Shown one piece after another: positions 1,953 to 31,814 of a stretch of DNA of 33,085 nt. The translations under genes and the position numbers were made by a program. This DNA comes from Bacteroidales bacterium (lineage in GTDB: Bacteria > Bacteroidota > Bacteroidia > Bacteroidales > CG2-30-32-10): assembly GCA_041658145.1 (NCBI GenBank), contig JBBAAT010000001.1, forward strand, positions 1-33,085. The letters run 5' to 3'. The notes below the pieces were generated by a model. The model did not search any database. It had not been told where the DNA came from and worked only from the letters and a program-made list of their open reading frames with translations. The first letter of the stretch is position 1. Every line of letters begins with the position of its first letter.

Positions 1953-3773
1953 ATGAACAAGATAAAAACATATTTAATAGTTGTAATATTAATATTTACA
2001 GCAAAATTAAGCATGGCACAAATCAATCCATTTATGGATGCCATGAAACAAGAAATACAAAGAGGGATGGACAGCTTAAAAATTGAAAAAATGCTTTCTC
2101 CTGAATTTATAAGCTACAGCATATCCGATGCAAAAGCATTACAAATAGAGGCAATTTTGGGAGCCATTGTTAAATCAGAAGAACGTCCAATCAGGGTATT
2201 TGAAAGCCGTGTATTTGTCGGCGAAAATGGAATAACCAACGAAAATTATCTCGATGAAAATAATATGTGGTCGTGGAGTCGCTTAAGTAACAAAATTCCC
2301 TTTTCAAATAATAAAAACGATATCCGCAGAGCATTATGGCTTCTTACAGATAATAATTACAAAGATGCAATAACAAACTATGAAGCTAAAATTTCCGCAT
2401 TGAGCCAACAAAGTCTTACAGAAGAAGAAAAACAATTACCTGATTTTTGCACAGTAACAAAATCAGAAACGCTTGTACCTTATCAAAGTTTTCAGCTTAA
2501 TAAATCTCAAATGGAAAGTCTTGCCCGAAATCTTTCTGCGATTTTTAAAAAATATCCTCTTATCCAAACTTCTGATGTAAATATTTTTGCTTACGACGGA
2601 CAAGTATTTTTTGCTAATAGCGAAGGTACTTCAGTCCAATATCCTTTACAAATTACTTCAATTAAAGTGGTTGCAACAACTCAGGCGCTAAGTGGCGAGG
2701 TTTTAAATGACCATGTATTGTGGTTTACTAAAAATATTTCACAATTACCCGATGAAAAAACAATGCTTGCCGAAGTTGAAAAGATGGCAAAGAATTTATC
2801 GGAATTAACTCAAAAAAATGCAGTAAGCGAGCCATATAGCGGACCTATATTATTCGAAGGTCAGGCAGCCGCAGAAGTTTTTGTGCAAAAGTTTTTTACT
2901 AATATTAACGGTTTAATTACTGTAAGGAAACCAGTTTTAGGAAGTGAACAAATTATAAATTTTGCCCCCGACAAGGTTAAAGAAAACACGCTTGAAGCAA
3001 TGATCAATAAAAAAGTCATTTCCAGAGATATTAGTATTGAAGCTCTTCCAACACTTACTGCTTTTCAAAACACAACACTAATTGGCAGTTTTATTACAGA
3101 TGCTGAAGGAGTTAAAGCTCCGGATACATTAGTTTTGGTTGAAAATGGTGTGCTTAAAAATTTACTCTGCACGAGAACGCCTAGCTTAAAAATGAAACAA
3201 ACCAATGGGCACGCCCGTGCCGCATTAAGCAACGGAGGAATAAAAACAGTTACCGGACCAGGTGTTATTAAAATGGTCAATAACAACCCTGCAACTTCTG
3301 TTGACAAGAAAAAACTAAAAGAAATGCTTTTAGCGGCAGCTAAAGAAGAAGATCTGGAATATGCCTATATTATAAGAAAAGTTGTTTCTGATGCTGCAGG
3401 CATTGAAAAAGAAAACAGCTATTATGGTGAATCTAAACCCAAAATCGATCTTACAAAAACAATACAAGTTTATCGGGTTAAAGTATCTGATGGAAGTGAA
3501 GAGTTAGTGAGTTTTGCGGAAGTTCAAGGGCTGAGTACAAAATCATTTAAACGCTTGCTGGCAACCTCGTCGGAAATGCAAGTTTATAATACAATGATAA
3601 AGCCTATAAATATTGATCTTAACAATTGGGAATATAAATTAACAGGCACTTCAGCTAGTTTTATTTTGCCCGAAGGTCTTTTATTTCAGGAATTAGATAT
3701 TGTAAAAGAAAAGCAAGGTGTTGTTAAGAATATCCCAGTTGTTAGCAATCCGCTTAATAATGTGAAACAATAA
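1953..3773 (+). CDS. PmbA/TldE-type partner protein (TldD/PmbA family, no HExxxH), with signal peptide
   Basis: 606-aa ORF starting 26 nt after the TldD-like stop, with a signal-like N-terminus (LIVVILIFTAKLSMAQ). It mirrors its neighbour's motifs (ENGVLKNLL, TNGHARA) but has no HExxxH anywhere, as expected for the non-catalytic partner. Confidence 0.8.
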   Translation: MNKIKTYLIVVILIFTAKLSMAQINPFMDAMKQEIQRGMDSLKIEKMLSPEFISYSISDAKALQIEAILGAIVKSEERPIRVFESRVFVGENGITNENYLDENNMWSWSRLSNKIPFSNNKNDIRRALWLLTDNNYKDAITNYEAKISALSQQSLTEEEKQLPDFCTVTKSETLVPYQSFQLNKSQMESLARNLSAIFKKYPLIQTSDVNIFAYDGQVFFANSEGTSVQYPLQITSIKVVATTQALSGEVLNDHVLWFTKNISQLPDEKTMLAEVEKMAKNLSELTQKNAVSEPYSGPILFEGQAAAEVFVQKFFTNINGLITVRKPVLGSEQIINFAPDKVKENTLEAMINKKVISRDISIEALPTLTAFQNTTLIGSFITDAEGVKAPDTLVLVENGVLKNLLCTRTPSLKMKQTNGHARAALSNGGIKTVTGPGVIKMVNNNPATSVDKKKLKEMLLAAAKEEDLEYAYIIRKVVSDAAGIEKENSYYGESKPKIDLTKTIQVYRVKVSDGSEELVSFAEVQGLSTKSFKRLLATSSEMQVYNTMIKPINIDLNNWEYKLTGTSASFILPEGLLFQELDIVKEKQGVVKNIPVVSNPLNNVKQ

Positions 3774-3793
3774 ATTACTCAAGTCTTGTCCTA

Positions 3794-3971
3794 AAATAAA
3801 TTCAAAAAATATAAATCACGAATCAAAATGACTGAAGATTTTTTCCAGGGATATAAAGGAACAGCGCTTGAGATGCTGAAAAAATTCAATGTCCGCGTGT
3901 GGGGGCAGGCAGTGATAGATACAAAACGCGGAACATTCAAAGGAACCATATTGCCTCGTTCCGAAAACGAC
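3794..3971 (+). repeat. direct repeat copy 1: duplicated upstream region plus first 144 nt of the gatD-like gene
   Basis: Aligns base for base with 5955-6132 (offset 2161 bp). The 144 coding nt carry 4 substitutions. The ~34 nt upstream of the ATG are more diverged. Confidence 0.95.
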
Positions 3972-3989
3972 ATAGCGGACAGACGCTAA
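3828..3989 (+). pseudogene. truncated 5' fragment of the gatD-like gene (48 native codons, then IADRR and stop)
   Basis: The ATG at 3828 reads MTEDFFQGYKGTALEMLKKFNVRVWGQAVIDTKRGTFKGTILPRSEND, identical in protein to residues 1-48 of the ORF at 5989. Homology ends at 3971/3972 and a TAA stop follows at 3987-3989. It is below the 60-aa cutoff of the ORF track. Confidence 0.85.
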
Positions 3990-4127
3990 TAGATTTTAAT
4001 TTTGACACTTCCTGACAATCATTCGTGACTAACAAAAAAATAAAATAGTGGAGTTCAGTGACCACTGAAAAAAACGGGGCGAAACCGAAAAGCCAAACGA
4101 GTAGGGGAAAAATAAAATTTCAGAATC

Positions 4128-4763
4128 ATGTACAAAACTATCTTGTTATTTGCTCTGCTTATTCTTGGCAGTTTTTCTATTTCGCTTCCTGACGAAAAAG
4201 AGGACAAGGTTATTAAAATTGCACTGGATAATCTATCTATTTCTCTTGCAAAAATTCCTGTCGGACAGGAAAATTATTATGGTTTCTCCAACCGTGAAGA
4301 ATTTAAGACAAGCAGCGTTGGAAAACCTTACCGTGTTATAACATTTACCAACGATTTTTACAATGAAGACAAACTCATTGATAAAAATTATATTCTGATA
4401 CAGAATGAATGGCGGGTACCGGTCACAGTCAATGGCGAAAACCGACTACTACTTACTGTAAGCCAACAAGACACAACATTAGAAGTTGTTGATTTAGGAG
4501 GAGCAGTTCTGGCAAAAGAACTCCAGAAAAAAGATGATAATGTGTCATCAGGTAGCCGTTATCTTTTACGCATTTACCCATTGGCACTTGATTTTTTTGT
4601 GAAAGTTACTCCGGGCAGTTCTCTTGCAGATGCAACTTATATTCCTTTAACATCTGCTACAATTGCAATAAATTCATTAAATGAGAAAAGAATATCTAAA
4701 CTTACTCTGCCCGAAGTTCTTCATATAGTAAAGCAACTATTAAAGCAACAATCTAAAAACTAA
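4128..4763 (+). CDS. hypothetical secreted protein (no recognisable family)
   Basis: 211-aa ORF with a signal-like N-terminus (ILLFALLILGSFSIS). Its stop lies 6 nt before the start of the downstream peptidase gene on the same strand. Confidence 0.7.
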   Translation: MYKTILLFALLILGSFSISLPDEKEDKVIKIALDNLSISLAKIPVGQENYYGFSNREEFKTSSVGKPYRVITFTNDFYNEDKLIDKNYILIQNEWRVPVTVNGENRLLLTVSQQDTTLEVVDLGGAVLAKELQKKDDNVSSGSRYLLRIYPLALDFFVKVTPGSSLADATYIPLTSATIAINSLNEKRISKLTLPEVLHIVKQLLKQQSKN

Positions 4764-4769
4764 TATGCA

Positions 4770-5609
4770 ATGAAAAAATTTCTGATTATTTCGATTTTTT
4801 TTATTCTGCTTGTTACTGGCTATATTAAAGCACAGGTGCTTAATGTGCCGCAAGTTATTCAGGAACAAAGTGAATGGTGCTGGGCAGGCGTTACTAAATG
4901 TGTTCTTGATTATTACGGATATCCAAACCAGCAATGCACAATAGCCGAATATGCAAGAACAGTTATAACATGGACCAGCTACGGTTCAGTGAATTGTTGT
5001 GTGGATCCAAATCAAGGATGCAATTATTGGAATTATAATTATGGTTACACAGGAAGTATTCAGGATATTCTTGTTCATTTCGGTAACATTCAAAATTATG
5101 GCATAGGTAATACTCTTACTTTAAACCAAATCAATACTGAAATTGCAGGCGGTCGTCCTTTTATAGTGCGGTGGCAATGGACAAGTGGTGGTGGTCATTT
5201 TGTGGTTGGACATGGGGTAGGCGGTAGCAATGTATATTATATGAATCCGTGGTTTGGTGAAGGGCTGCATATAAGCACTTATAGTTGGTTGGTTAATGAT
5301 GGTAATCACACCTGGACACATACCAATGTTTTGACAACCTCCCCAACTGGGCTTAATGATCTTTTACTTCAAGCGGACATCGTAGAGATTTATCCCAATC
5401 CAACGGGCGGAAAATTTACAATTAATAGTAATAGCAACATAACCTCTATAGAAATTAACAATGTACTTGGAGAAAAAGTTTATTCTAATTCAAAATTCAA
5501 TAAACAAACATCAAACGAGATTGACCTTTCTAACTCTTCCAAAGGAATCTATTTTGTAAAAATTTATGACGGAGAGAAAATTTATAATGAAAAAATTGTG
5601 ATACAGTAA
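4770..5609 (+). CDS. papain-like cysteine peptidase (C39-like/C70 AvrRpt2-like fold) with T9SS C-terminal sorting domain
   Basis: 279-aa ORF with a signal peptide. Gln/Cys motif QEQSEWCWAG and a downstream His in GGGHFVVGHG, with spacing typical of papain-fold C39-like/C70 peptidases. The C-terminus (IYPNPTGGKFTI ... GIYFVKIYDGEKIYNEKIVIQ) matches the T9SS type A sorting-domain pattern. Confidence 0.8.
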   Translation: MKKFLIISIFFILLVTGYIKAQVLNVPQVIQEQSEWCWAGVTKCVLDYYGYPNQQCTIAEYARTVITWTSYGSVNCCVDPNQGCNYWNYNYGYTGSIQDILVHFGNIQNYGIGNTLTLNQINTEIAGGRPFIVRWQWTSGGGHFVVGHGVGGSNVYYMNPWFGEGLHISTYSWLVNDGNHTWTHTNVLTTSPTGLNDLLLQADIVEIYPNPTGGKFTINSNSNITSIEINNVLGEKVYSNSKFNKQTSNEIDLSNSSKGIYFVKIYDGEKIYNEKIVIQ

Positions 5610-5639
5610 TGACATTTTATGGATGACAGAAAACTAAAC

Positions 5640-5700
5640 CAGCCCATAACAGGCGTTTGCTTTCAATGGCGGTCCGCCGCGGTGAAAGTGGCTCATAGGA
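5640..5700 (+). repeat. intergenic repeat family 'aacaggcgtttgc', copy 1
   Basis: ataacaggcgtttgctttcaatggcg...gtggctcatagga parallels 14460-14510. It also matches 30836-30870 in reverse orientation. Confidence 0.7.
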
Positions 5701-5758
5701 CAGAGAAGAAAAGAAAGAAAATATCAGAACTTATTTAACCCGAATTATGCACAAATCA

Positions 5759-5875
5759 GGGCTAAAGCCCATACAACAAGTATCTTCAATAACCCCGACC
5801 TTAGCTTCGGCTACGCTCAGCTACCAAAGGTCGGGGTTATGCAAATGGCCTATTAATAAGGGACTTTAGTCCCCA
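5759..5875. repeat. cluster of intergenic hairpin modules
   Basis: Palindrome gggctaaagccc (5759-5770). Perfect 14-bp stem ataaccccgacctt (5789-5802) / aaggtcggggttat (5827-5840). Palindrome gggactttagtcccc (5861-5875). Confidence 0.7.
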
Positions 5876-5954
5876 AATAAAGTTTATAAACCAAGCAAAG
5901 CGACCTCATAAGCACCTTTGAAAATAGAAAATAAGCGAATAATTAACCAAGTTA

Positions 5955-6132
5955 AAGTAAATTCGAAAAATATAAATCACATACAAAAATGACTGAAGAT
6001 TTTTTCCAGGGATATAAAGGAACAGCGTTAGAGATGCTGAAAAAATTCAATGTCCGCGTGTGGGGGCAGGCCGTGATAGATACAAAACGTGGAACATTCA
6101 AAGGAACCATATTGCCTCGTTCCGAAAACGAC
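5955..6132 (+). repeat. direct repeat copy 2 (heads the intact gatD-like gene)
   Basis: See 3794-3971. This copy continues in frame into the full 461-aa ORF. Confidence 0.95.
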
Positions 6133-7374
6133 GACGACAAACATATCGTGCTGAAAATTTCAACAGGATACAATATCGGCCTCGACACGGAAACCATTAC
6201 CGGCATGGAGGAAACCGGTTATAAAAAAGCTAATTACAAGATTCCCGAAAAAGAATTTCCTTTCACACAGGGATTACCTAAAGTTAAACTGATTGGAACA
6301 GGCGGCACTATTGCATCGCGCCTTGATTACCGCACCGGAGCAGTAATTCCTGCATTCAGCCCGGGCGAACTTTATGGCGCTGTACCTGAACTTGCTGATA
6401 TTTGTAATCTTACCACCGAGAAAGTATTTGCAGTTTTCAGCGAAAATATGGGGCCTGAGCAATATAAAAAATTAGCTATTGCAATTGGAAAAGAAATTGA
6501 AAATGGTATTGACGGAATTATCATTGGCCATGGAACGGATACTCTGCATTATACAGCAGCAGCGCTTACATTCATGGTGCAAAATCCGCCAATCCCTATT
6601 ATTCTTGTCGGCTCGCAGCGTTCATCTGATCGTCCTTCTTCCGATGCCGCATTAAACCTGATGCACGCCGCTACAGCGGCTGGACACGGAGATATTGCAG
6701 AAGTGATGGTTTGTATGTTTGGTCCGACTTCCGATTCTTATGGATTTTTGCACAGAGGAACCAGGGTTAGGAAAATGCACTCCTCATACCGCTCCACATT
6801 CCGCACTATTGGCGATACACCTGTTGCAACGGTTACACGAAAAGGCGTTACTCCTATTAAACAAATTTACAGTCATCGCCGCAAGGACAGGAATGTTACG
6901 ATATTGCCTTACTTCGAAGAAAAAGTAGGAATGATATATTATTACACCAATATGAATCCCGACATGATAGACTCCATGGTGGACAATGGTTACAAAGGGA
7001 TCATCATCATAGGAACCGGATTGGGTCATGTAAACAAACCGCTATATCCCGCAATTGAAAGAGCTACAAAGAAAGGTGTCGCCGTTTATATGACAGTTCA
7101 AACCTTATGGGGCTATGTGCACATGTTTGTATATGACACAGGCCGCGATCTGATGGCAAAAGGAGTTATTCCTATGGAGAATATGATTCCTGAAACAGCC
7201 TATATAAAATTAGGTTGGGCATTAGGACAGACAAGTGATCTGGAAAAAGTAAAAGAATTAATGATGACTCCTATCAATAGCGAAACAACTCCCCGCGAAC
7301 CATATAATGGTTACCTGATTTACCAGGGTGGTGTTCCGGAAGTGGAAGAGTTTATAAGGAAGTTCAGGAAATAA
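5989..7374 (+). CDS. type I L-asparaginase family protein, GatD-like (homolog of Glu-tRNA(Gln) amidotransferase subunit D)
   Basis: 461-aa ORF. Asparaginase motifs GTGGTIASRLDYRTGAV, HGTDTLHYTAAAL and VGSQRSSDRPSSDAALNL. An extra ~90-aa N-terminal domain (VLKISTGYNIGLD) resembles the GatD N-domain rather than AnsA. Confidence 0.85.
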   Translation: MTEDFFQGYKGTALEMLKKFNVRVWGQAVIDTKRGTFKGTILPRSENDDDKHIVLKISTGYNIGLDTETITGMEETGYKKANYKIPEKEFPFTQGLPKVKLIGTGGTIASRLDYRTGAVIPAFSPGELYGAVPELADICNLTTEKVFAVFSENMGPEQYKKLAIAIGKEIENGIDGIIIGHGTDTLHYTAAALTFMVQNPPIPIILVGSQRSSDRPSSDAALNLMHAATAAGHGDIAEVMVCMFGPTSDSYGFLHRGTRVRKMHSSYRSTFRTIGDTPVATVTRKGVTPIKQIYSHRRKDRNVTILPYFEEKVGMIYYYTNMNPDMIDSMVDNGYKGIIIIGTGLGHVNKPLYPAIERATKKGVAVYMTVQTLWGYVHMFVYDTGRDLMAKGVIPMENMIPETAYIKLGWALGQTSDLEKVKELMMTPINSETTPREPYNGYLIYQGGVPEVEEFIRKFRK

Positions 7375-7384
7375 TAATTTCGTC

Positions 7385-7514
7385 TAGTGTTAAGTTAATA
7401 AACAGATGACGCAAAGATTGCTTCGTCGTACCTCCTCGCAATGACGTCATTGCGAAGCCGACGCAGGAGGCTGAAGCAATCTTAATGTGAGAATTTAGGT
7501 TTAACATAACACTA
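7385..7514. repeat. palindromic REP/MITE-like element, family 'cgcaatgacg-tcattgcgaag', copy 1
   Basis: Outer arms tagtgttaagttaa / ttaacataacacta. Long inner palindrome aagattgcttcgtcgtacctcctcgcaatgacg|tcattgcgaagccgacgcaggaggctgaagcaatctt centred at 7445/7446. Confidence 0.85.
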
Positions 7515-7537: not shown

Positions 7538-7552
7538 TATAAAACAAATAAC

Positions 7553-8842
7553 ATGAAACGCATCCTTCCTTTCGCATGTTTTATTTTATTAATTAGCCCT
7601 GTTTATTCGCAGGATACCATCCGCGTTATGCATTACAACCTGTTGTGTTACGGACAAACCTGTTCTTATTCTAACTGTACATCGTCGAATAACGATGAAA
7701 CCGCAAAAAACGGATACCTGAAAACCATTATCAAATACGCTAAACCCGATATTTTTACAGTGAATGAAATTGCCAAAAACGCTGCCAAACACCAACTTCT
7801 GATGAATAATTGCCTGAATGTGGATGGTGTTACGTATTACCAAAAATGCAACTATTCAAATCAGTCCAACTCGGATCTTACAAACGAATTATATTACAAT
7901 TCTGATAAATTAGGCTTTTGTTCACAATACAATATTGGTACAAGTGTAAGGGATATCAATATTTACAAGCTTTATTTCAAGGCAGGAAATCTGAGTACTA
8001 CACACGATACAGCTTTTTTTACCTGCATTGTAACGCACCTGAAAGCAGGCAATACGAGTTCGGACTCTATTGAAAGGGCTACAATTACCAATACCATTAT
8101 GAATTACCTGAATTCAATCGGCGTTAAAGATAATTACATGGCGATGGGAGACTTTAATGTTTATTCGGGCAATGAGAAATGTTTTCAAAACCTTGTTAAT
8201 TATACAAACCCTGATATCAGGTTCTTTGATCCTGTTAATAAAATAGGAAACTGGCATGATGATTCATATTATGCGGATTATCATACACAATCTACGCATA
8301 CTTCATCAACAGGATGCTTTTCCACAGGCGGCATTGACGACAGATTTGATTTTATACTGATCTCCGATTACATAAAAAATGGGACTCAACATTTTCAATA
8401 TATCCCTTCAACATATAAAGCAATCGGACAGGATGGAAATCATTTAAACGATGCTGTAAATTACGGGACTAACAATAGCGCCCCGGACAGTGTAATTGAC
8501 GCACTCTATGGTATGTCCGATCATCTTCCGGTAATCCTTGATCTTCGCGTGAATCAGACAGCCGGTATAAACAACCTTCAAATTCCTGCTTTTACAAATG
8601 TGTATTTTGCAAACCCTGTAAATGATAACATGGATGTGACAGTCGAAGTTCCTGCAAAAACAAAATTGATATTCAATGTCATCAATTTGCTTGGGCAAAT
8701 ATTGTATTCAAAGGAGATTGAAACAACAGGTACGATAGCATATTGCAGTATTTCCACAGAGTCCCTTTATAAAGGTATATATTTCCTGAAAGTTTCGGAC
8801 AGCGGGAATAATAGTATTGTCAGGAAATTTGTTAAGGGGTAG
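7553..8842 (+). CDS. endonuclease/exonuclease/phosphatase (EEP) family protein with T9SS C-terminal sorting domain
   Basis: EEP motifs VMHYNLL, TVNEI, MGDFN and SDHLPV. A signal peptide follows MKRILPFACFILLISPVYSQ. C-terminal sorting-domain pattern (GIYFLKVSD...VRKFVKG). The ORF track starts at a TTG at 7535; the ATG at 7553 is preferred. Confidence 0.85.
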   Translation: MKRILPFACFILLISPVYSQDTIRVMHYNLLCYGQTCSYSNCTSSNNDETAKNGYLKTIIKYAKPDIFTVNEIAKNAAKHQLLMNNCLNVDGVTYYQKCNYSNQSNSDLTNELYYNSDKLGFCSQYNIGTSVRDINIYKLYFKAGNLSTTHDTAFFTCIVTHLKAGNTSSDSIERATITNTIMNYLNSIGVKDNYMAMGDFNVYSGNEKCFQNLVNYTNPDIRFFDPVNKIGNWHDDSYYADYHTQSTHTSSTGCFSTGGIDDRFDFILISDYIKNGTQHFQYIPSTYKAIGQDGNHLNDAVNYGTNNSAPDSVIDALYGMSDHLPVILDLRVNQTAGINNLQIPAFTNVYFANPVNDNMDVTVEVPAKTKLIFNVINLLGQILYSKEIETTGTIAYCSISTESLYKGIYFLKVSDSGNNSIVRKFVKG

Positions 8843-8853
8843 AACTTGATGAG

Positions 8854-9015
8854 TCAAGTATTACCATTTTCGTCAACCTTTTTTTTCCGTTTATATTTTT
8901 TCTTTTTATCCGGCGCTACCTTCGTACGGAAACGACCATCGTAATAACCGTCTTTCTTGCGCTTTTCACGCTCATCGGCTTCGATCATTTTCTTTATTTT
9001 CGATTTTTTTGCCAT
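8854..9015 (-). CDS. small highly basic protein (53 aa), unknown function
   Basis: Hand translation of the minus strand gives MAKKSKIKKMIEADEREKRKKDGYYDGRFRTKVAPDKKKKYKRKKKVDENGNT followed by a stop. It is below the ORF-track cutoff, fills the gap between the EEP gene and a MITE, and has no competing ORF. Confidence 0.45.
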   Translation of the reverse strand: MAKKSKIKKMIEADEREKRKKDGYYDGRFRTKVAPDKKKKYKRKKKVDENGNT

Positions 9016-9022
9016 TATATTA

Positions 9023-9351
9023 TAACTACTCAGCCACTATATTCGCCTTAATAGCCACAGATTTATTCGCATTTATTTCCATTTTTAAGGTGCTCATGAG
9101 TGCTACGCAGTTCACAGATTTTAAACTACCAAAGGTAGTTTTCTTTGTGAACTTAGCGAAGCCCCGCCTGAATGACACCGCCAGAATGACCTTGTCGGGC
9201 TGGCAGTCGGGCAGGGATCTCATGAACACATTGAAAATAAAATAGTCGTGAATAAAATTTATAAAAAAAAATTAATTTTAATCTGTGTAATCCCTGCCTT
9301 GCCGGCAGGCAGGTGTGGCGTTTTATTTTTGCTGCTGACTGATGTAGTTAC
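9023..9351. mobile_element. MITE-like non-autonomous element, family 'taactactcagcc', degenerate copy with nested insert
   Basis: Left end taactactcagccac and degenerate right end gctgactgatgtagttac. It shares internal modules with 15322-15640 (cacagattttaaactaccaaaggtagttttctttgtgaacttagcgaagc ... aatttataaaaaaaa ... ttttaatctgtgtaatc). It carries an extra ~52-bp segment (about 9159-9210) between gcgaagc and gatctca. Confidence 0.8.
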
Positions 9352-9353
9352 AA

Positions 9354-12281
9354 TTACTTTTTGAATAAATTTTTTTCTTTTATTTTTACAATTTTCCCGA
9401 ATTTAGCGATATCCTGCATATTCAGGCGTTTTTCGTCGCCTACAATACAAATAACAATTGGCTTACCTTTGATATTGGTCTTATAAAAATTCAGGATGTC
9501 ATTAAAAGTAAGATTCTTGTAAGTTTCAAGTTTATATTTTGCAGGGTCTTCGTAATATCCTTTCAATTTCCAGCTCACAATTTTTTCGCTCAGCTCCCTG
9601 AAATCGGGCCGGCTTGCAAAAGCTTCCTGTACTAATGAACTGCGAATGGTCTCAATGCGGTCTTCTTTTTCGGGCATATTAGTAACAAGGCTGTCGAACA
9701 CGCTGATTGCCTCAACAGTCTTGTCTGCCTGAGTTCCTATGTATCCAATAAAACTGGAGCGTTTACCGGTTAATAAAGGTATAGAATAAGAAGCTCCTGC
9801 TGAGTATGCCATAGAGCGGTATTCGCGGATTTCCTGGATAACAAGCCCTGAGAATCCACCGCCAAAATAATCATTGAATGCATCAATAGATGCCTCCTTG
9901 TCAATTGAATAATCTTCACCTTTTATATAAAAATATATCTGGCTTTGTACGGCGTCTTTTCGGTTCACAAAGAACACCGTATTTTCATTATATATTTCAT
10001 CATTCAACACCACAGGTGATTCGCTGGCTTTCATGTACTGTGGAAATTTTATGCTGGTCTTAAAAATGTCAAGTATTGTATCAAAATCAAATTTATTGCC
10101 TACGTAATGTATCTGCGCCTCATAGTCCATTCCTTTTTTGAATACTGCCAACAGGCTGTCGGTATTCAGCGCTTTGATTTCTTTCATGTTAAGGCGGTTC
10201 AGGAAAGAAGACCTGTTTTTCTTGCGGACATATTGCAGTAACGCCTTTGAAACACTTGGTGCATCAGCATTCTCAAGTTTGCGTGAAGTTTTTTCCTGAT
10301 CGATGATATTTTTCATCTTGTTCTTTTCAACTACAGGATTAGTTATAAGATCCTGCAACAATTCCAACGCAGGTTTCAGATCATCTTCAATACCGTCGAG
10401 TTCAATGGTCATATAATCATCATCGCAACTAAATGTGTATGTGCAGCCTATTTTTTGGAATGCTGTTTTTATTTCGGTGAGTGTTTTTGTCTTTGTGCCT
10501 GCATAATTCATTAGTTCTGCAGCATAATATAATTGTGGTATTTTATATTTACCCACTCCAAATTGAAATGTAAGAGAATAGATGTCGTTTTCCGGATTGT
10601 TGGTATAATATAAGGTAAGGCCTTTGTTCAGTCCGGATATTTTCACATCTTCGTTGAAGTTCACAAAAACAGCTTTAGGTTCTTTTCCCTGCATCTTTTC
10701 AAACTTTTCTGCAAAGGGAGATTTGGTATCCATCTTTGGTTTTATGGGTTCGTATCCTGGTTTTTCAAGTTTTTCTTTTTTCGGAAACCCCATTTTGGAA
10801 AGCAGGATCAAATAATTCCGGTTATAATATTTTTCAGCCGTTTTTATTACATCGTCTTTGGTGATGTTCTTAACCTTTTGTACATATTCCAGAAATTCAT
10901 CAATATCTCTTTTTTGCGAAAATGCCTGCGCAAGTAAAACGGTTCTTGAATCGAAATTTTCGAGCGACATTTCGAATTCCTTATAAATATCTTTTTTTAC
11001 TGCATCAAGCAGCCAGTCGTCGAATTCACCCTTTCTGAGTTTTGCAAACTGCTCCATGATCAAACTTTCAGCATTTTCAAACGATTGCCCGAGTATTTTT
11101 GGAACAAACAGGAAAACACCGGAACCGTAATCATTGTTCTGTCCAAGAGGAATATATTGTGCGGCCAATAATTTGTTGTCGAGTACAAGTTTGTCTAATA
11201 GTCCTGTCTGTCCTGAATTTGAAAGGATACTGTTACATACGTCAAGCGGGATTTCATCAGTATCTCCATTGGGGACGGTGCGAAATCCAATGATGCCAAG
11301 TTTTATGGGTGTCATCTTTACGTTAACGGCTTCTCTTCCTTTAAAGGGTTCTTCCTTGTATTCCGGGTATTGCGGTACTGTATCCGATTTCCACTTGCTG
11401 AATTTTTCTTTGATCATCGGTAGTATTTCATCGGTATTAAAATCGCCACACATCACAAGCGCCATATTGTTTGCAACATAGTATGTTTTATAAAATTCGT
11501 ACATGGCATTTAATGACGGGTTCTTCAGATGCTCTATCGTACCTATGGTTGACTGTTGTCCATAAGGATGTTTTTTATAAAGATTTTTCAAAAAAGTTTC
11601 AATGAAAGGAAACACAAAATTATCCATCGAACGGTTTTTTTCTTCGTATACCACTTCTAATTCCGATTGGAATGAACGAAACACCGGGTTTATAAAGCGC
11701 CGGCTGTATAGTTCAAGCCATTTTTCTATTTGGTTCGGAGGAAAAGCATTGTGGAAAAATGTCATTTCTTCTGCCGTAAAAGCATTCATGCCTGTACCGC
11801 CAATACTTTTAATCAGTTTGTCGGTTTCTGTAGGAACAGCGTATTCTCCGGCTTTTAACGATTGCTCATTGATTTGTTTCTGGATTTCTTTCCGCTTTAC
11901 CTCATCTGTAGTTTTTCCAAGCGAGTCATAGAGCGCATAGATATTTTCAAGATATGGCTTTTCTTTTTCAAAATCGGTGGTGCCCATTTCTTCTGTGCCT
12001 TTAAAAAGCATGTGTTCCAGGTAATGAGCGATGCCTGTATGATTGGGCGGGTCATTTTTACTTCCTGCTTTAACAACCACACCGCCAAATACAAGAGGTT
12101 TGGAATGATCTTCATTTAATAACACAGTGAGTCCGTTATCTAATATATACCTGGAAACCTTCAGAGTAGTAGTCTGTTTTTGCTGACCTAAAACATTCCC
12201 TGTCAGGATAAATAAAAAGATACCTGCAAGACCAATCGTAATTTTTAGAATTCGGGATATCATAACAAATTGATTTAACAT
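9354..12281 (-). CDS. M16 family (insulinase/pitrilysin-like) zinc peptidase, tandem M16 modules
   Basis: 975-aa ORF with a signal-like N-terminus. Inverted zincin motif HxxEH in GIAHYLEHMLFKG. The length fits an active plus an inactive M16 half. Confidence 0.85.
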   Translation of the reverse strand: MLNQFVMISRILKITIGLAGIFLFILTGNVLGQQKQTTTLKVSRYILDNGLTVLLNEDHSKPLVFGGVVVKAGSKNDPPNHTGIAHYLEHMLFKGTEEMGTTDFEKEKPYLENIYALYDSLGKTTDEVKRKEIQKQINEQSLKAGEYAVPTETDKLIKSIGGTGMNAFTAEEMTFFHNAFPPNQIEKWLELYSRRFINPVFRSFQSELEVVYEEKNRSMDNFVFPFIETFLKNLYKKHPYGQQSTIGTIEHLKNPSLNAMYEFYKTYYVANNMALVMCGDFNTDEILPMIKEKFSKWKSDTVPQYPEYKEEPFKGREAVNVKMTPIKLGIIGFRTVPNGDTDEIPLDVCNSILSNSGQTGLLDKLVLDNKLLAAQYIPLGQNNDYGSGVFLFVPKILGQSFENAESLIMEQFAKLRKGEFDDWLLDAVKKDIYKEFEMSLENFDSRTVLLAQAFSQKRDIDEFLEYVQKVKNITKDDVIKTAEKYYNRNYLILLSKMGFPKKEKLEKPGYEPIKPKMDTKSPFAEKFEKMQGKEPKAVFVNFNEDVKISGLNKGLTLYYTNNPENDIYSLTFQFGVGKYKIPQLYYAAELMNYAGTKTKTLTEIKTAFQKIGCTYTFSCDDDYMTIELDGIEDDLKPALELLQDLITNPVVEKNKMKNIIDQEKTSRKLENADAPSVSKALLQYVRKKNRSSFLNRLNMKEIKALNTDSLLAVFKKGMDYEAQIHYVGNKFDFDTILDIFKTSIKFPQYMKASESPVVLNDEIYNENTVFFVNRKDAVQSQIYFYIKGEDYSIDKEASIDAFNDYFGGGFSGLVIQEIREYRSMAYSAGASYSIPLLTGKRSSFIGYIGTQADKTVEAISVFDSLVTNMPEKEDRIETIRSSLVQEAFASRPDFRELSEKIVSWKLKGYYEDPAKYKLETYKNLTFNDILNFYKTNIKGKPIVICIVGDEKRLNMQDIAKFGKIVKIKEKNLFKK

Positions 12282-12348: not shown

Positions 12349-12384
12349 CAAAAAAGACCATGACTGAATTGTCATGGTCTTTTA
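12349..12384 (-). terminator. rho-independent terminator (bidirectional-looking) downstream of 12402-12743
   Basis: Perfect 10-bp stem agaccatgac (12355-12364) / gtcatggtct (12371-12380) with a 6-nt loop. The A-run at 12350-12355 is a T-run on the minus strand. A T-run at 12380-12383 lies on the plus strand. Confidence 0.65.
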
Positions 12385-12401
12385 TCGATTATAAATATGG
12401 A

Positions 12402-12743
12402 TTATTTTTCACGTTTAAATTCAAACTTTACATCATAGGTCTTACTTGTATTTTCCTTTGAAGGAATAATTTTAAGGTTCATAAGTTTACCTACTATATA
12501 ATCTTTAAGGTTTGCATCACTTTCATTTGTCAGATTCACACAAATTGTTCCGTCGGAATTTACCGTAAAATTCACCAGAACAAACCCTTCAAGTTTTTGC
12601 TGTTTTGCAAAATCGGGATAAGAGATTTCTTTATTAAGTAATTTGTCGATGCTGGTAGTTTTGGGATTTCCTGCATTTGCAGTGTCTAAGCTTGCAATTG
12701 TGAAAATCACTAAGCTTATCAGTATTGTCATTTTTATTTTCAT
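12402..12743 (-). CDS. small secreted protein, possibly TonB C-terminal-domain-like
   Basis: 113-aa ORF with a signal peptide. The segment ISYPDFAKQQKLEGFVLVNFTVNSDGTI resembles the TonB_C pattern (YP..A....EG.V.V.F.V..DG). The product call is tentative. Confidence 0.6.
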   Translation of the reverse strand: MKIKMTILISLVIFTIASLDTANAGNPKTTSIDKLLNKEISYPDFAKQQKLEGFVLVNFTVNSDGTICVNLTNESDANLKDYIVGKLMNLKIIPSKENTSKTYDVKFEFKREK

Positions 12744-12963
12744 GGCTTTTGTTTTTAAGGTTTATACTTTGGTTTCAAATTCAATCATAAGACGCCAATG
12801 AAAATCTAAAAGTTACAGGAGAAATGATTTTTTTCGTAACTTCATTTAAATATTTTTCAGTTTAAACAAAAAATATTATTTTTGAATCATCAAAGCAAGT
12901 TAAACACAATCCCGAAGTTTCGGGATGAAACTTGACAAGTACTAACCTTTAAAATGAAAAAAA

Positions 12964-14268
12964 ATGAAAAAAATTACATTATTATTTTTGCTCATTTTTG
13001 CGATAGCAAAAACTTATGCACAGAATTATCAAATCAGTTTTGCAGGAACAGGAGCAAGTACGACTGTTGACTCTGTACAAGTAGAAAACCTGACACAATG
13101 TACCGACACGATCCTTGGTGGAAGCGATATATTGCACCTTACAGCAACGGTGGTAGGAATAAACGAATTGAACACCAGTGCAGAGAATACTTTGCATATC
13201 TATCCGAACCCAATGACAGGTAATTGTTCAGTGGATTTTGAAGCAACTGCTCAAAGCAAAACGACTATTGGATTATACGACATAACTGGAAAAAGAATTT
13301 TGCAAGTGCAGGAATTATTATTAAAAGGATATCATACATACAGCCTGAGCGGAATTAACAGTGGAATATATTTCATTAAAGTAGAATCGGACAAATTTTT
13401 ATATACTGCAAAAATAATAAGCAGTAATGCAACATTTGGTATAGTTGAAATAAAGCATATTGGAACGACGCCGGGCATAGATAAACAAAGTACAACTTCA
13501 AACCTGCCTACCGGACAGGCAGGTACAGGAAAAATGAAGAGTTTGAAAAGCGATAAATCAGTAATAGATATGCAATATACCACTGGCGACAGATTGAAAC
13601 TGACAGGAAAATCAGGTGTTTACCGTACTGTCTTTATGCTCGTGCCAACCCAAACCCAAACTGTTACTTTTAATTTTGTTGCTTGCACCGATGCCGATAA
13701 CAACAACTATTCTGTAGTACAAATAGGGACACAAGTTTGGATGGCTGAAAACCTAAAAACCACTAAATACCGCAATGGCGATCCTATACCCAACGTTACC
13801 GATTACACGGCATGGAGCAATCTTATATCAGGGGCTTATTGTGATTATGACAATACACCAAGCAATAGTACAATTTATGGTAAACTTTACAACTGGTATA
13901 CCATTGTTGATTCACGTAATTTATGCCCTACCGGCTGGCACGTGCCCACCGATGCCGAGTGGACATCACTGGTAGACTCTTTGGGAGGCGAAAGTGTTGC
14001 CGGCCGCAAACTGAAAGAAATCGATTCAGCACATTGGCAAAGTCCTAATTTAGCGACCAATGAAAGCGGTTTTACAGCCCTTCCGGGCGCCATGCGTAGC
14101 TGGAATGGTACATTCGATTATATTGGCGTCTACGGTTACTGGTGGAGTTCTTCAGAGTACAATACATACGACGCTTGGTACCGCTACATGTACTACTTTT
14201 CTTACGATGTTTTTAAAAACTACAACGATAAGCAAAATGGGTTGTCAGTTCGTTGCTTGAGGGATTAA
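12964..14268 (+). CDS. FISUMP (Fibrobacter succinogenes major paralogous) domain protein with an internal T9SS-sorting-like domain
   Basis: 434-aa ORF with a signal peptide. The C-terminal half carries FISUMP hallmarks (VQIGTQVWMAENL, YGKLYNWYT, CPTGWHVPTDAEW, NESGFTALPGA, YWWSS). Residues ~77-154 (LHIYPNPMTGNCSVDFE...GIYFIKVES...AKIISS) look like a T9SS sorting domain. Confidence 0.85.
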   Translation: MKKITLLFLLIFAIAKTYAQNYQISFAGTGASTTVDSVQVENLTQCTDTILGGSDILHLTATVVGINELNTSAENTLHIYPNPMTGNCSVDFEATAQSKTTIGLYDITGKRILQVQELLLKGYHTYSLSGINSGIYFIKVESDKFLYTAKIISSNATFGIVEIKHIGTTPGIDKQSTTSNLPTGQAGTGKMKSLKSDKSVIDMQYTTGDRLKLTGKSGVYRTVFMLVPTQTQTVTFNFVACTDADNNNYSVVQIGTQVWMAENLKTTKYRNGDPIPNVTDYTAWSNLISGAYCDYDNTPSNSTIYGKLYNWYTIVDSRNLCPTGWHVPTDAEWTSLVDSLGGESVAGRKLKEIDSAHWQSPNLATNESGFTALPGAMRSWNGTFDYIGVYGYWWSSSEYNTYDAWYRYMYYFSYDVFKNYNDKQNGLSVRCLRD

Positions 14269-14459
14269 TTTATTTGACTATTTGATTTACCCCGTAGGAT
14301 AAAAAATATATTGGAACTACAAAAAAAAATTATAGCACTATTCAACGGGGTGAATTTACCGCAAAGTTTACCCTGTTGAGCTTGCTCTTTAGGGCGGTCG
14401 ATTTTTATTTTTAATAAATGGCAAATAATTATGATCTAAAAAATGAGTGAAAGACCAAC

Positions 14460-14510
14460 GAAACGCTAACAGGCGTTTGCTGTCAGTGGCGCGACTGTGG
14501 CTCGTAAGAT
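14460..14510 (+). repeat. intergenic repeat family 'aacaggcgtttgc', copy 2
   Basis: ctaacaggcgtttgctgtcagtggcg...gtggctcgtaagat parallels 5640-5700. Confidence 0.7.
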
Positions 14511-14623: not shown

Positions 14624-15298
14624 TTATTCTTTTTTCCCTTCCACAACAATAACAATCTCCCCCTTCACCACTTTGCTTTTAAAATATTCAAGGATTTCGG
14701 TAAGTGTTCCCCTTTTTGTTTCTTCGTATAACTTAGTAAGTTCGCGGGATACAGAAGCTTTGCGTTCTGCGCCGAAGTGAATGGAAAATTCTTCGAGGGC
14801 TTTTACTAAGCGATGTGGCGATTCGTAAAAGACAAGTGTGTAAGGCATTTCGGCAAGTTCTTTAAGCCTCGTTTGCCTGCCTTTTTTCTGCGGAAGGAAT
14901 CCTTCAAAGTGAAAACAATTGCATGGAAGTCCGCTGACAACAAGAGCTGGAACAAATGCGACGGGACCGGGCAAACATTCTACTTCAATACCTGCTTTGA
15001 GGCATTCGCGTACCAAAAGAAATCCCGGATCGGAAATGCCTGGCGTGCCTGCATCGCTTACGAGAGCAATGTCTTCTCCTCTCAGAATTCTTTCTGTAAT
15101 TAATGGAACTTCGCGATGTTCGTTGTGCAGATGATGAGCCATCATGCGGGTTTTAATTCCGTAATGCTTTAGAAGTTTACTTGTGGTGCGGGTGTCTTCG
15201 GCAAGTATCAGGTTAACTTCTTTTAAAACACGGATAGCCCGGAGGGTAATATCCTCAAGATTTCCAATAGGAGTAGGTACTATGTATAGTTTTGACAT
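14624..15298 (-). CDS. rsmI: 16S rRNA (cytidine1402-2'-O)-methyltransferase
   Basis: 224-aa ORF. Its N-terminus LYIVPTPIGNLEDITLRA, plus EDTR and DAGTPGISDPG, are classic RsmI (tetrapyrrole-methylase fold) motifs. Confidence 0.9.
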   Translation of the reverse strand: MSKLYIVPTPIGNLEDITLRAIRVLKEVNLILAEDTRTTSKLLKHYGIKTRMMAHHLHNEHREVPLITERILRGEDIALVSDAGTPGISDPGFLLVRECLKAGIEVECLPGPVAFVPALVVSGLPCNCFHFEGFLPQKKGRQTRLKELAEMPYTLVFYESPHRLVKALEEFSIHFGAERKASVSRELTKLYEETKRGTLTEILEYFKSKVVKGEIVIVVEGKKE

Positions 15299-15321
15299 TT
15301 TTTTTCAAAAATACAAATTAT

Positions 15322-15640
15322 GTAACTACTCAGCCACTACATTAGCCTTAATAGCCACAGATTTCACAGATTTTAAACTACCAAAGGTAGTTTTCTTTGT
15401 GAACTTAGCGAAGCGATCTCACAAACACATTGAAAATAAAAATTTTGTGAGTAACTTAGCGAAGCGATCTCACGAACACCTTAAAAATAAATAATTTGTG
15501 AGTAACTTAGCGAAGCGATCTCACGAACACCTTAAAAATAAATAATTTGTGAGTAAAATTTATAAAAAAAAATAATTTTAATCTGTGTAATCTGTGGCAT
15601 GTATTTGTTTTTTAACATTTTAAATCGGCTGAGTAGTTAC
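15322..15640. mobile_element. MITE (319 bp) with perfect 14-bp TIRs and 8-bp target-site duplication
   Basis: TIRs gtaactactcagcc (15322-15335) and ggctgagtagttac (15627-15640) are exact reverse complements. They are flanked by identical caaattat at 15314-15321 and 15641-15648. The element has no coding capacity. Confidence 0.9.
15396..15556 (+). repeat. tandem repeat inside the MITE (about 3.2 copies, period 48-51 bp)
   Basis: The unit tgtgagtaacttagcgaagcgatctcacgaacaccttaaaaataaataattt recurs, with its tgtga anchor at 15398, 15446, 15497 and 15548. The last two full units are identical. Confidence 0.9.
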
Positions 15641-22350: not shown

Positions 22351-22441
22351 GTCGTCATTGCGAATCCCGCATGTGCGGGATGAAGCAATCTAATCATTGT
22401 TTGTCAATAGATTGCTTCGTCGTACCTCCTCGCAATGACGT
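22351..22441. repeat. palindromic REP/MITE-like element, family 'cgcaatgacg-tcattgcgaag', half-swapped variant (copy 2)
   Basis: It contains the same two half-sites as 7385-7514 but in the opposite order: gtcattgcgaa...gaagcaatct, then agattgcttcgtcgtacctcctcgcaatgacg. It has a different inner hairpin, tcccgcatgtgcggga. Confidence 0.8.
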
Positions 22442-24972: not shown

Positions 24973-26310
24973 ATGAATTATAATGAACGGTTACAAAATG
25001 TAACAATTTTAGGTGCGACAGGAAAAATGGGAAGCGGCATCCTGTTGCTTACGGCCATGGAAATGACCGATTTAAAACTGAAACCTGAGAATAAAGACAA
25101 AGAGTATGTCATTTATGCTATGGCCCGGCGTCAAAAGGCTCTTTCTGACCTTATGATTTATATACAGGAACAAGTAGTAAAAGCTGCTGAGAAAAAAACT
25201 ATTGCGCTGCGCAAGGTATATGCTGATCGCAAAGACCTTATCAGCAACGGCGAAATCATTAACCAATATGTTAAGGATGTGATGAATGTCATTCGCCCTG
25301 TAACAACTATTGAATCGGCTTATGAATCATTCCTTATCTTTGAAGCTATCAGCGAAAATCCTGAACTGAAGATTCAAATGTTGTCGCAAATTGACAAAAA
25401 TAACAAAAACAAACCCTGGTATTTCACTAATACCTCATCAATTCCAATCGGATTCCTTGATAAAGAAATCGGTCTTGACGGAAGAATTTTAGGTACACAT
25501 TTCTACAATCCGCCTGCTGTTCAAAAGTTAGTTGAAGTTATCAAATCGGCAAATACAAAACCTGAACTGTCGGAATTTGCAAGTCAATATATTAAGAATA
25601 TGAAAAAGATTGAAGTTCCTTCTGCTGATTTTGCCGGTTTCGTTGGCAACGGACATTTCATGCGCGATGCATTACACGGCATGAAAGAAGCTATGAATCT
25701 TACAAAGGAAATGTCTTTTCCTGAAGCAGTTTATATTATGAATAAGGTAAGTCAAGATTACCTCATCCGCCCGATGGGCATCTTTCAACTTATTGATTAT
25801 GTCGGCATTGATGTTTGCCAGTTTATTATGAAAGTTATGAGTCCGCAGGTTAAAGACGAAGAAATTCACAGTCCTTTACTCGATCGTTTCATGTCATTAG
25901 GAGTGAAAGGCGGACAGAATTTCGATGGCTCACAAAAAGACGGATTCCTGAAATATGAAAAAGGGAAACCTGCTGGTATTTATGATCCCGAGAAAAAACA
26001 ATATGTCCCGATTGCAGATATTTCATCCAAATGCGATAGCAAACTTGGAAAGAATCCATCATCAATACTGCCATGGAAAACATTAGTCGGAGAAAGCAAT
26101 AAAGATGAATTATTAAAAAAATATTATTCGGAATTAAAATCAATGGATACTTTGGGCGCACGATTAGCAGTATCTTATGCTAAACGTTCTAAAGAAATTG
26201 GGCTTAAACTGGTAAAAGACAAAGTAGCTTTCAACGAAAAAGATGTGAATACAGTTCTTTTAACAGGATTTTTCCATGCTTATGGTCCTATTAACGATTA
26301 TTTAAACTAA
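24973..26310 (+). CDS. 3-hydroxyacyl-CoA dehydrogenase family protein (unusually long, 445 aa)
   Basis: Rossmann motif ILGATGKMGSG and the HADH signature region GTHFYNPPAVQKLVEV. It has insertions and a C-terminal extension relative to the ~280-aa Hbd-type enzymes as I recall them. Confidence 0.8.
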   Translation: MNYNERLQNVTILGATGKMGSGILLLTAMEMTDLKLKPENKDKEYVIYAMARRQKALSDLMIYIQEQVVKAAEKKTIALRKVYADRKDLISNGEIINQYVKDVMNVIRPVTTIESAYESFLIFEAISENPELKIQMLSQIDKNNKNKPWYFTNTSSIPIGFLDKEIGLDGRILGTHFYNPPAVQKLVEVIKSANTKPELSEFASQYIKNMKKIEVPSADFAGFVGNGHFMRDALHGMKEAMNLTKEMSFPEAVYIMNKVSQDYLIRPMGIFQLIDYVGIDVCQFIMKVMSPQVKDEEIHSPLLDRFMSLGVKGGQNFDGSQKDGFLKYEKGKPAGIYDPEKKQYVPIADISSKCDSKLGKNPSSILPWKTLVGESNKDELLKKYYSELKSMDTLGARLAVSYAKRSKEIGLKLVKDKVAFNEKDVNTVLLTGFFHAYGPINDYLN

Positions 26311-26437
26311 TGTTAAGTTAAGAGTGATATGTCGAATAGATTGCTTCGTCGTTCCTCTTCGCAATGACGTCATTGCGAAGCCGACGAAGGAGGGTGAAGC
26401 AATCTTACTGCGTAGAAATAAGTTTAACATAACACTA
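26309..26437. repeat. palindromic REP/MITE-like element, family 'cgcaatgacg-tcattgcgaag', copy 3
   Basis: Outer arms tgttaagttaa / ttaacataacact. The inner palindrome agattgcttcgtcgttcctcttcgcaatgacg|tcattgcgaagccgacgaaggagggtgaagcaatct is collinear with copy 1. The element abuts the HADH stop codon. Confidence 0.85.
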
Positions 26438-30896: not shown

Positions 30897-31814
30897 TTAT
30901 TTATGTTCAAATACCATTTTCGTCTGTGTCAGATATGGTGTCAATCTGTTTTCCGCAAGCGAAATATATTCTGGATTTGTGTCATAACCAATAAAGTTTC
31001 TTTCGGATTTAATTGCTGAAACTGCTGTTGTTCCACTGCCCATAAAGGGGTCAAGTATAATGTCGTTTTTGAATGAGTACAATTGAATTAGTCGAAAAGG
31101 AAGTTCTTCAGGAAATGGTGCAGGATGTCCGATACGCCTTGCACTTTCTGCATTCATTGTCCAAATGGATTTTGTCCATTCCATAAATTGCTCTTTAGTA
31201 ATAGTATTTCCCTTTTCGATTTTTTCTCTTTTATAGTCACCTTTTGAAAACACTAAAATATATTCGTGAACGTCTCTAAGGATAGGATTTGCTGCACTTT
31301 GCCAACTTCCCCAAGCTGTTGAAGGACTTGCGCTTGCTGCTTTATTCCAAATGATTTCGCCTCTCATATTAAAGCCAATAGCAAGCATCATTTTTGAAAT
31401 GTAATCAGACAATGGTATATATGGTTTTCGTCCAAGGTTAGCAACATTAATGCAAGCACGGCCTCCATTAATAAGGACTCTGTATGTTTCTTTAAAAGCA
31501 TTTTTTAATAATTTAAGATATTCACTCAGTGAAAGATCATCGTCATATTCTTTAGTCACATTATAAGGAGGAGAAGTAATCATTAAATGAATAGAGTTGT
31601 CTGGCAACTCTTTCATATTCTCAGCAGAACCAAGAATAAGTGTATTTAAGAGTTTGTCAGGTAATTTATTTTCTGATTTATCCGTAATCTCCTTGCTTTC
31701 GATAGTTGAATACAATTTTGAATTGTAAAACTTAGAACTATCGTGATTGATTCTTCCGTTAGTTCCAAAAGCACTGGTAGTTGTTCCATTCTTTCTAACT
31801 ACTGTTGTTCCCAT
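30897..31814 (-). CDS. beta-class N4/N6 DNA methyltransferase (N6_N4_Mtase family; SPPY motif suggests N4-cytosine or N6-adenine)
   Basis: 305-aa ORF. Catalytic motif IV ITSPPYN precedes the AdoMet motif I DPFMGSGTT, which is the beta-class order. Its start overlaps the upstream ORF by 16 nt. Confidence 0.88.
   Translation of the reverse strand: MGTTVVRKNGTTTSAFGTNGRINHDSSKFYNSKLYSTIESKEITDKSENKLPDKLLNTLILGSAENMKELPDNSIHLMITSPPYNVTKEYDDDLSLSEYLKLLKNAFKETYRVLINGGRACINVANLGRKPYIPLSDYISKMMLAIGFNMRGEIIWNKAASASPSTAWGSWQSAANPILRDVHEYILVFSKGDYKREKIEKGNTITKEQFMEWTKSIWTMNAESARRIGHPAPFPEELPFRLIQLYSFKNDIILDPFMGSGTTAVSAIKSERNFIGYDTNPEYISLAENRLTPYLTQTKMVFEHK

Follow-up and report, generated by a model that had tools for sequence, protein, structure and literature searches.

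A severed gatD 5′ end and a protease operon upstream of gatD in a Bacteroidales genome, a probable scar of additive recombination

The DNA analyzed here, called the window, is a stretch of 33,085 nucleotides (positions 1 to 33,085 of the forward strand of contig JBBAAT010000001.1, assembly GCA_041658145.1) from a Bacteroidales bacterium. Its gatD gene, which encodes subunit D of the Glu-tRNA(Gln) amidotransferase, is intact at 5989..7374 (plus strand, 461 aa), and a second gatD 5′ end, cut off from the rest of the gene, lies upstream of it with a small operon in between. The two 5′ ends form the one long direct repeat of the window (3792-3971 and 5953-6132, 180 nt, 94% identity, 2161 nt from start to start), and a repeat search found no other long repeat of that kind in the 33 kb. 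Each copy consists of a 36-nt A-rich gatD leader followed by gatD codons 1-48. In repeat copy 1 (3792..3971, plus strand) the leader occupies 3792-3827 and the codons 3828-3971; in repeat copy 2 (5953..6132, plus strand) the same segments head the intact gene. Copy 1 continues into a 53-aa stub open reading frame (ORF; 3828..3989, plus strand), which encodes GatD residues 1-48, then IADRR, and ends in a TAA stop at 3987-3989. It is annotated as a 53-aa hypothetical protein in the NCBI, JGI and ENA records, and the 48-residue GatD fragment alone has no Pfam match; it is most likely a displaced, non-functional gatD 5′ end. Homology is lost abruptly at 3971/3972, at 3791/3792 and at 5952/5953. 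To the left of 3792 and 5953 there is no significant similarity, the local alignment score being equal to the shuffle mean, and an extension of the repeat leftward to the stop codon of the preceding gene, tldD2, was dropped by the same comparison with shuffled sequences.

The 144-nt coding halves of the two copies differ at positions 40, 42, 84 and 102, which fall in three codons (CTT/TTA for Leu, GCA/GCC for Ala and CGC/CGT for Arg); all four substitutions are synonymous and the translations are identical. The leaders differ at 6 of 36 sites, about six times the coding divergence per site (Fisher p = 0.005). When four random substitutions were simulated, all four were synonymous in 0.2-0.4% of the runs (P about 0.002-0.004). 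Not one of the approximately 109 non-synonymous sites has changed between the copies, and roughly nine changes would be expected had the stub drifted like the leaders. The longest exact run common to both copies is 42 nt, and no difference falls in the final 42 nt of the repeat. An initial annotation of this DNA had described direct repeats offset by 2161 bp, four coding substitutions that are all synonymous, a more diverged leader and a 48-codon stub facing an intact 461-aa gene. The alignments, a recount of the same codons and the ORFs at 3828-3989 and 5989-7374 agree with it on each point, with the extent of the repeat now placed at 180 nt.

The closest relative with data, locus L105, served as the outgroup; its gatD is 96% identical in amino acid and 91.7% in nucleotide sequence and is syntenic downstream. 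L105 has TTA and GCC, as in copy 2, and CGC, as in copy 1, so that the stub copy holds the derived state at three of the silent changes and the gene copy at one. The copies are 4/144 apart, much like the window and L105, which differ by 3/144 in this segment. Because the changes in the stub copy are confined to silent sites, we hold that the stub probably diverged while it belonged to a functional gatD in a different lineage, and that it was severed recently. The suggestion of the initial annotation that the two copies diverged within functional genes of two lineages is thus upheld by the synonymous-only divergence, at the simulated P of about 0.002-0.004, and by the L105 polarization. Divergence of the window gatD from L105 (positions 7538-8920) is itself a mosaic, ranging from 1 to 31 differences per 48 codons, which suggests repeated recombination between lineages within gatD.

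All of the sequence sources are short-read metagenome assemblies, and the comparison assemblies were made by MEGAHIT with k = 141. Locus L001 (ERZ27247322) spans the whole structure and is 99.9% identical to the window, with 12 substitutions and one 4-nt indel in 15.4 kb. The assembly ERZ27249422 contributes L087, which is 100% identical and covers tldD1, tldD2, the stub and the left junction, and L002, which is 99.25% identical (53 mismatches) and covers the operon between the copies, the right junction and gatD. Both junctions and all copy-specific differences are therefore reproduced in independent assemblies. There are no differences between L001 or L002 and the window inside either repeat copy or gatD; the single-nucleotide polymorphisms (SNPs) that separate these strains cluster at 4919-5132, 11835-12047, 12365-12827 and 15239-15310, and two indels are found, at 5709 and 9293-9313. 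Such clusters and indels look typical of short recombination tracts. The mosaic divergence from L105 and the clustering of the strain SNPs make it evident that close lineages in this population recombine often. In ERZ27249422, the end of L087 and the start of L002 share an exact overlap of 141 nt, equal to k, at 4032-4172, which is 60-200 nt to the right of the stub junction, a sign of an unresolved graph branch and hence of a co-occurring variant at that place in the sample.

The DNA between the copies begins with 71 nt (3972..4042, plus strand) that start at the apparently illegitimate junction 3971/3972 and have a homologue in none of the fetched loci. They contain a small terminator-like hairpin at 3973-3988, found by a terminator scan, and a Bacteroidetes-type -7 box, TAATTTTG, at 3997-4004, which is the sole plus-strand TAnnTTTG box between tldD2 and gatD. 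The box could be a candidate start for the operon transcript; the motif, searched as TANNTTTG, is not enriched in the window and is hence weak evidence. A full-length match to the DUF805 RNA motif (Rfam RF03081) follows at 4043..4111 on the plus strand, with 79.2 bits against a gathering score of 51.1, and is predicted to be the 5′ leader of the operon. The DUF805 RNA motif is named for its position upstream of DUF805-domain genes. The gene downstream of it here, p211, has no match to any Pfam or NCBIfam domain, and the same pairing is found in L089, where the RNA (L089:1079-1147, 82 bits) also precedes the p211 orthologue and the p211/p279 operon genes are likewise without a DUF805 domain. 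A literature search on the DUF805 RNA, limited in reach, found nothing.

The first cargo gene, p211 (4128..4763, plus strand, 211 aa), encodes a protein of no known family with an N-terminal hydrophobic, signal-like segment. Sixteen homologues were found, and in all four of the loci examined (L088-L091) a p279 homologue lies directly after the p211 homologue. An AlphaFold model of p211 has a confident fold (pLDDT 87), and its best match in the PDB is weak: prostaphopain B, the proenzyme of staphopain B (1x9y_A, E = 0.012, TM 0.28). This sole structural match gives a faint hint that the protein may partner the protease encoded by p279 as a free-standing prodomain- or inhibitor-like protein. The second cargo gene, p279 (4770..5609, plus strand), encodes a papain-like C39_2/C70-like peptidase with a C-terminal sorting domain of the type IX secretion system (T9SS); the domains matched are Pfam Peptidase_C39_2, Peptidase_C70 and Por_Secre_tail and NCBIfam TIGR04183. 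The right part of the insert is a 343-nt non-coding spacer (5610..5952, plus strand) with several hairpins, among them a perfect 14-bp stem (5789-5802/5827-5840), and a fold z-score of -2.5. It has no Rfam match and no homologue in the other fetched loci, and its element at 5623-5671 resembles an intergenic element at 14443-14491 of the same window. The description of the inserted genes as AT-richer holds relative to gatD (GC 0.41-0.48) but not relative to the flanking tldD genes (0.31-0.39); because the inserted genes, at 0.32-0.42, have the same GC as that flank, there is no compositional anomaly in the insert.

The gene at 5989-7374 is a true GatD by its curated equivalog scores and its structural matches. 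It scores 498.9 bits with the equivalog model NF003217 (cut-off 310) and 497.4 with TIGR02153 (cut-off 324), it has the Pfam architecture GatD_N, Asparaginase, Asparaginase_C, and it matches the GatD structures 1zq1 (E = 1e-116) and 2d6f (E = 1e-111). Both it and the gatE of L004 exceed the curated equivalog cut-offs of NCBIfam. There is no gatE in the 33-kb window, although the gene may be located in another part of the genome. The relatives compared were 80 GTDB species-representative genomes (79-92% amino acid identity) and 18 JGI contigs, among which very close relatives are thinly sampled. In most of them gatE directly precedes gatD, usually with a gap of 9-100 nt; a few have extra genes between gatE and gatD (L094, L068) or no nearby gatE (L021, L023, L042, L048). 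Adjacent gatE and gatD are found in most of about 100 loci from Bacteroidales, Lentimicrobiaceae and Marinilabiliales (L004-L083, L096-L113), and a 2021 review describes GatDE as confined to archaea (PMC8007984). A second gatD start or stub, an upstream tldD pair or the cargo at gatD was found in none of the 80 GTDB and 18 JGI loci.

On the left, the repeat is preceded by tldD2 (1953..3773, plus strand, 606 aa; Pfam PmbA_TldD_3rd), the second of two TldD/PmbA-family genes. The blastn homology of tldD2 to L084, L085 and L086 ends at 3773-3774, exactly at its stop codon, and other genes lie downstream of the orthologues in those loci. A predicted empty site, with a pmbA/tldD gene followed directly by gatD, is in none of the fetched loci: gatD normally follows gatE, and the tldD2 orthologues (87-91% identity) precede a methylmalonyl-CoA mutase or an M48 peptidase gene instead. 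Since most relatives have gatE-gatD and no tldD2-gatD site was found, the whole area upstream of gatD is derived, or rearranged, in the lineage of the window, and this region is prone to rearrangement in the order as a whole. Because its position in a gatE operon has been lost, the window gatD is likely to be transcribed from within the insert or through it.

The cargo is known from other genomes. The RNA leader, p211 and p279 (window 4040-5596) have 85% nucleotide identity to L089/L090, where the DUF805 RNA is also present and a different T9SS gene lies upstream, and the p211/p279 pair recurs in L091 at 58% amino acid identity inside another operon. There is no gatD fragment beside the orthologues in L089, L090 or L091, and in the two loci tested, L089 and L091, no direct repeats flank the cargo. 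No matches were found in IMG/VR, phage or plasmid collections, and an association of the cargo with mobile elements was dropped after all of these searches proved negative. The cargo therefore resembles an ordinary chromosomal module. A search with the 53-aa stub found nine other short GatD N-terminal proteins, of which three are on examinable contigs and the remainder on contigs of <1.4 kb, with P0143 left out. P0141, P0144 and P0146 were rejected as further stubs: they are frameshifted gatD pieces from error-prone assemblies, with the rest of the gene next to them or the contig ending there. A gatD with a degenerate N terminus, P0149 (L114), was also set aside, its differences lying in the first ~100 nt of the contig and looking like end-of-contig errors. 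A special nucleotide conservation of the gatD 5′ end, which a recombinase site or an RNA element would be expected to produce, was considered and rejected, the first 48 codons being as diverged as the rest of the gene in comparison with the more distant relatives L101, L103 and L004; nothing in this stretch therefore suggests a site that acts at the DNA or RNA level.

We think it probable that the structure is a recombination scar, left when a close Bacteroidales lineage contributed about 2.16 kb of chromosomal DNA by additive integration. The donor would have had the order own promoter, DUF805 RNA leader, p211, p279, hairpin-rich spacer, gatD leader and gatD, and the recipient the order tldD2, leader and gatD. 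The donor DNA would have been anchored by one homologous exchange, either within the 180 nt common to both or deeper in gatD, and its far end (window 3972) would have been joined illegitimately to gatD codon 48 (window 3971). This could have come about by homology-facilitated illegitimate recombination (HFIR) of a linear fragment, or by a single crossover with a fragment that had first been circularized by end-joining. Either route would leave the -36 to +144 segment twice in direct orientation with the cargo between the copies, the left copy detached from the remainder of the gene and the right copy placed at the start of an intact gatD. On its left side the repeat would stop at -36 where the upstream contexts of donor and recipient already differed, and no extra coincidence would be needed. 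The geometry found is the one that such an integration leaves: homology on one side of the insert, a joint without homology on the other and a partly duplicated anchor. The donor-recipient logic can be read from the sequence because the stub has no non-synonymous changes and the copies differ silently. The repeat, its silent coding divergence, both junctions, the lack of recombinases and the occurrence of the cargo elsewhere are observed, whereas how donor and recipient were arranged and which way the DNA moved are inferred, and HFIR and circle crossover fit the data equally. There is experimental precedent in Escherichia coli, where DNA with one-sided homology was integrated mostly as single-crossover products with 109-950 bp of the homologous locus duplicated, true HFIR also occurring (PMC3240628), and HFIR has been proposed for the displaced gene fragments in type VI secretion system (T6SS) and Rhs arrays (PMC5361080).

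Several points weigh against this reading. The statistical case consists of three changed codons, and the lineages are distinguished by 10 differences. Neither a donor-type arrangement (cargo, spacer and gatD with no stub) nor a recipient-type arrangement (tldD2 then gatD) is in any genome found, and in the closest relatives, L105 and L114, the sequence extends no further than 73 nt and 6 nt, respectively, upstream of the gatD start codon. Both lineages must earlier have lost the gatE-gatD linkage, which is an added event. We know of no natural transformation or conjugation in this organism. HFIR is also rare in experiments (PMC5361080).

Other explanations have to be weighed against the same facts. 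A site-specific integrative element, either a remnant or one mobilized in trans (resembling a cis-mobilizable element, CIME, or an integrative and mobilizable element, IME), could have used the gatD leader and 48 codons as attP, so that the repeats would be attL and attR and integration would displace the native gatD 5′ end and supply a replacement. Direct repeats of a gene end around foreign-looking cargo are the classic signature of such an element, the right-hand copy does restore an intact gatD, the identical last 42 nt of the repeat could be the core, and several relatives vary in what precedes gatD. However, no recombinase, integrase or transposase family was found when the larger ORFs of the insert and of the whole 33-kb window were scanned with Pfam, which extends the lack of a recombinase that had been noticed in the insert; an enzyme encoded elsewhere in the genome could still act in trans. 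A stub or such an insert is present in none of about 100 related gatD loci, the short GatD N-terminal proteins that could be examined are frameshift fragments (the rest being on the contigs of <1.4 kb), the cargo occurs elsewhere without a gatD fragment and, in L089 and L091, without flanking repeats, it has no viral, phage or plasmid relatives, and its composition and intergenic repeat element are host-like. We regard the integrative element as unlikely, both as a remnant or trans-mobilized element and in its replacement of the gatD 5′ end. The pair of mechanisms put forward initially is accordingly divided: a recombination-mediated swap is the better option, and the integrative element that replaces the 5′ end of its target is unsupported, the search for the same cassette beside other gatD genes having given none among the 80 GTDB and 18 JGI relatives. 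It is quite improbable that the 180-bp gatD segment is the attachment site for a system of small, integrase-less Bacteroidota cassettes that are mobilized in trans, rebuild the 5′ end of their target and place gatD under a promoter controlled by the DUF805 RNA.

An event in situ within one lineage would dispense with a donor: either the 180-nt segment would have been copied to a place in front of cargo already there, or a staggered duplication would have accompanied the insertion of the cargo. The stub does retain its ATG and leader, and the stub as such is invariant in the three strain variants. A neutral stub should change like the leader (6/36), yet none of the ~109 non-synonymous sites has changed, and the silent changes are mostly on the stub copy (3/4). 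An in situ event would then need gene conversion, or selection on the stub as a small ORF or leader, but the 48-residue fragment has no Pfam match and no recurrent homologues as a free-standing ORF. We consider it improbable in either form, and the earlier view that a simple in situ duplication is less likely is sustained by the silent-only coding changes and the more diverged leader. It could also be argued that the assembly is at fault and has fused two co-occurring strains into a chimera across their common gatD 5′ sequence, since every source is a short-read metagenome assembly, the assembly of one sample breaks near the junction with the 141-nt (= k) overlap at 4032-4172 that marks a graph branch, and in L114, and possibly in L105, the gatD 5′ end is likewise close to a contig end. 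That a chimera or a sequencing error produced the structure is unlikely because the junctions recur in independent assemblies and the 42-nt exact run shared by the copies is far below k = 141. The junctions and copy-specific differences recur in assemblies of strains 12-53 SNPs apart, and the joint of stub to cargo must exist in the reads regardless of linkage further to the left. The chimeric join is thus highly improbable, and the initial concern that the assembly might be chimeric or the four bases erroneous finds little support.

The additive integration that we favor has close parallels. Like the Campbell-type single crossover and HFIR (PMC3240628; PMC5361080), it would combine one homologous exchange with one illegitimate joint and require no dedicated recombinase, and as in the single-crossover products of E. 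coli the foreign DNA is flanked by a direct partial duplication, of 109-950 bp there and 180 bp here. In contrast to the E. coli experiments, this would be a natural event, read from sequence, in which the donor, the recipient, the route of DNA uptake and any microhomology at the joint are hypothetical; moreover, the anchor is a gene 5′ end with its leader, and the gene is rebuilt rather than disrupted. The likeness to the effector-immunity arrays of Rhs, contact-dependent inhibition (CDI) and T6SS loci is that an incoming module recombines via a conserved part and displaces a truncated remnant, and that such fragments originate from other strains and not from duplication (PMC5361080). What those arrays displace is the variable 3′ end of a toxin, the immunity genes being retained, and they do so repeatedly and for a selective reason, whereas here a 5′ end has been displaced once, beside a housekeeping gene, and the cargo is unrelated to gatD.

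Genomic islands, integrative and conjugative elements (ICEs), IMEs and CIMEs that target tRNA genes, guaA, rpsI or rpmG integrate at a gene end and carry a replacement end. As in those elements, direct repeats of the target end bracket the cargo, the target is intact and the repeats differ slightly. Unlike them, the window has no integrase, the structure does not recur, the cargo is not tied to the repeat elsewhere and it resembles ordinary chromosomal genes. The scar is most likely a new instance of an already-known type of event, with no new mechanism or integrative system.

Other features of the window lie outside this structure. Several families of intergenic repeats resemble repetitive extragenic palindromic (REP) elements, at 7374-7514, 26297-26437 and 22406-22441, at 15402-15556, and at 9023-9278 and 15323-15579. 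One REP-like hairpin element (…GATTGCTTCGTCGTACCTCCTCGCAATGACG…) occurs after gatD and at two other sites, and another repeat family has a 51-nt unit in three tandem copies. A 434-aa protein encoded at 12964-14268 has a T9SS sorting domain at residues 79-152, not at the C terminus, followed by a Fib_succ_major domain; this unusual domain order could stem from an ORF that is fused or has the wrong start. The far end of the window (30897-32431, minus strand) carries a compact restriction-modification system, in which the gene for a ThaI-type restriction endonuclease overlaps that for an N6/N4 DNA methylase.

If our reading is correct, the scar is a natural example of how accessory genes can be added between core genes without the machinery of mobile elements: one homologous and one illegitimate exchange would leave a datable stub of the anchor gene. 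It could serve as a teaching case and as a search pattern for similar scars in metagenomes. The wide presence of archaeal-type gatE-gatD in Bacteroidales and the occurrence of a DUF805 RNA before a non-DUF805 operon may outweigh the scar itself in worth, and the DUF805 RNA motif may regulate a wider set of genes than its name suggests. For the organism, gatD has been split from its usual partner gatE and now lies behind a secreted-protease operon, which raises a small question about how gatD is expressed.

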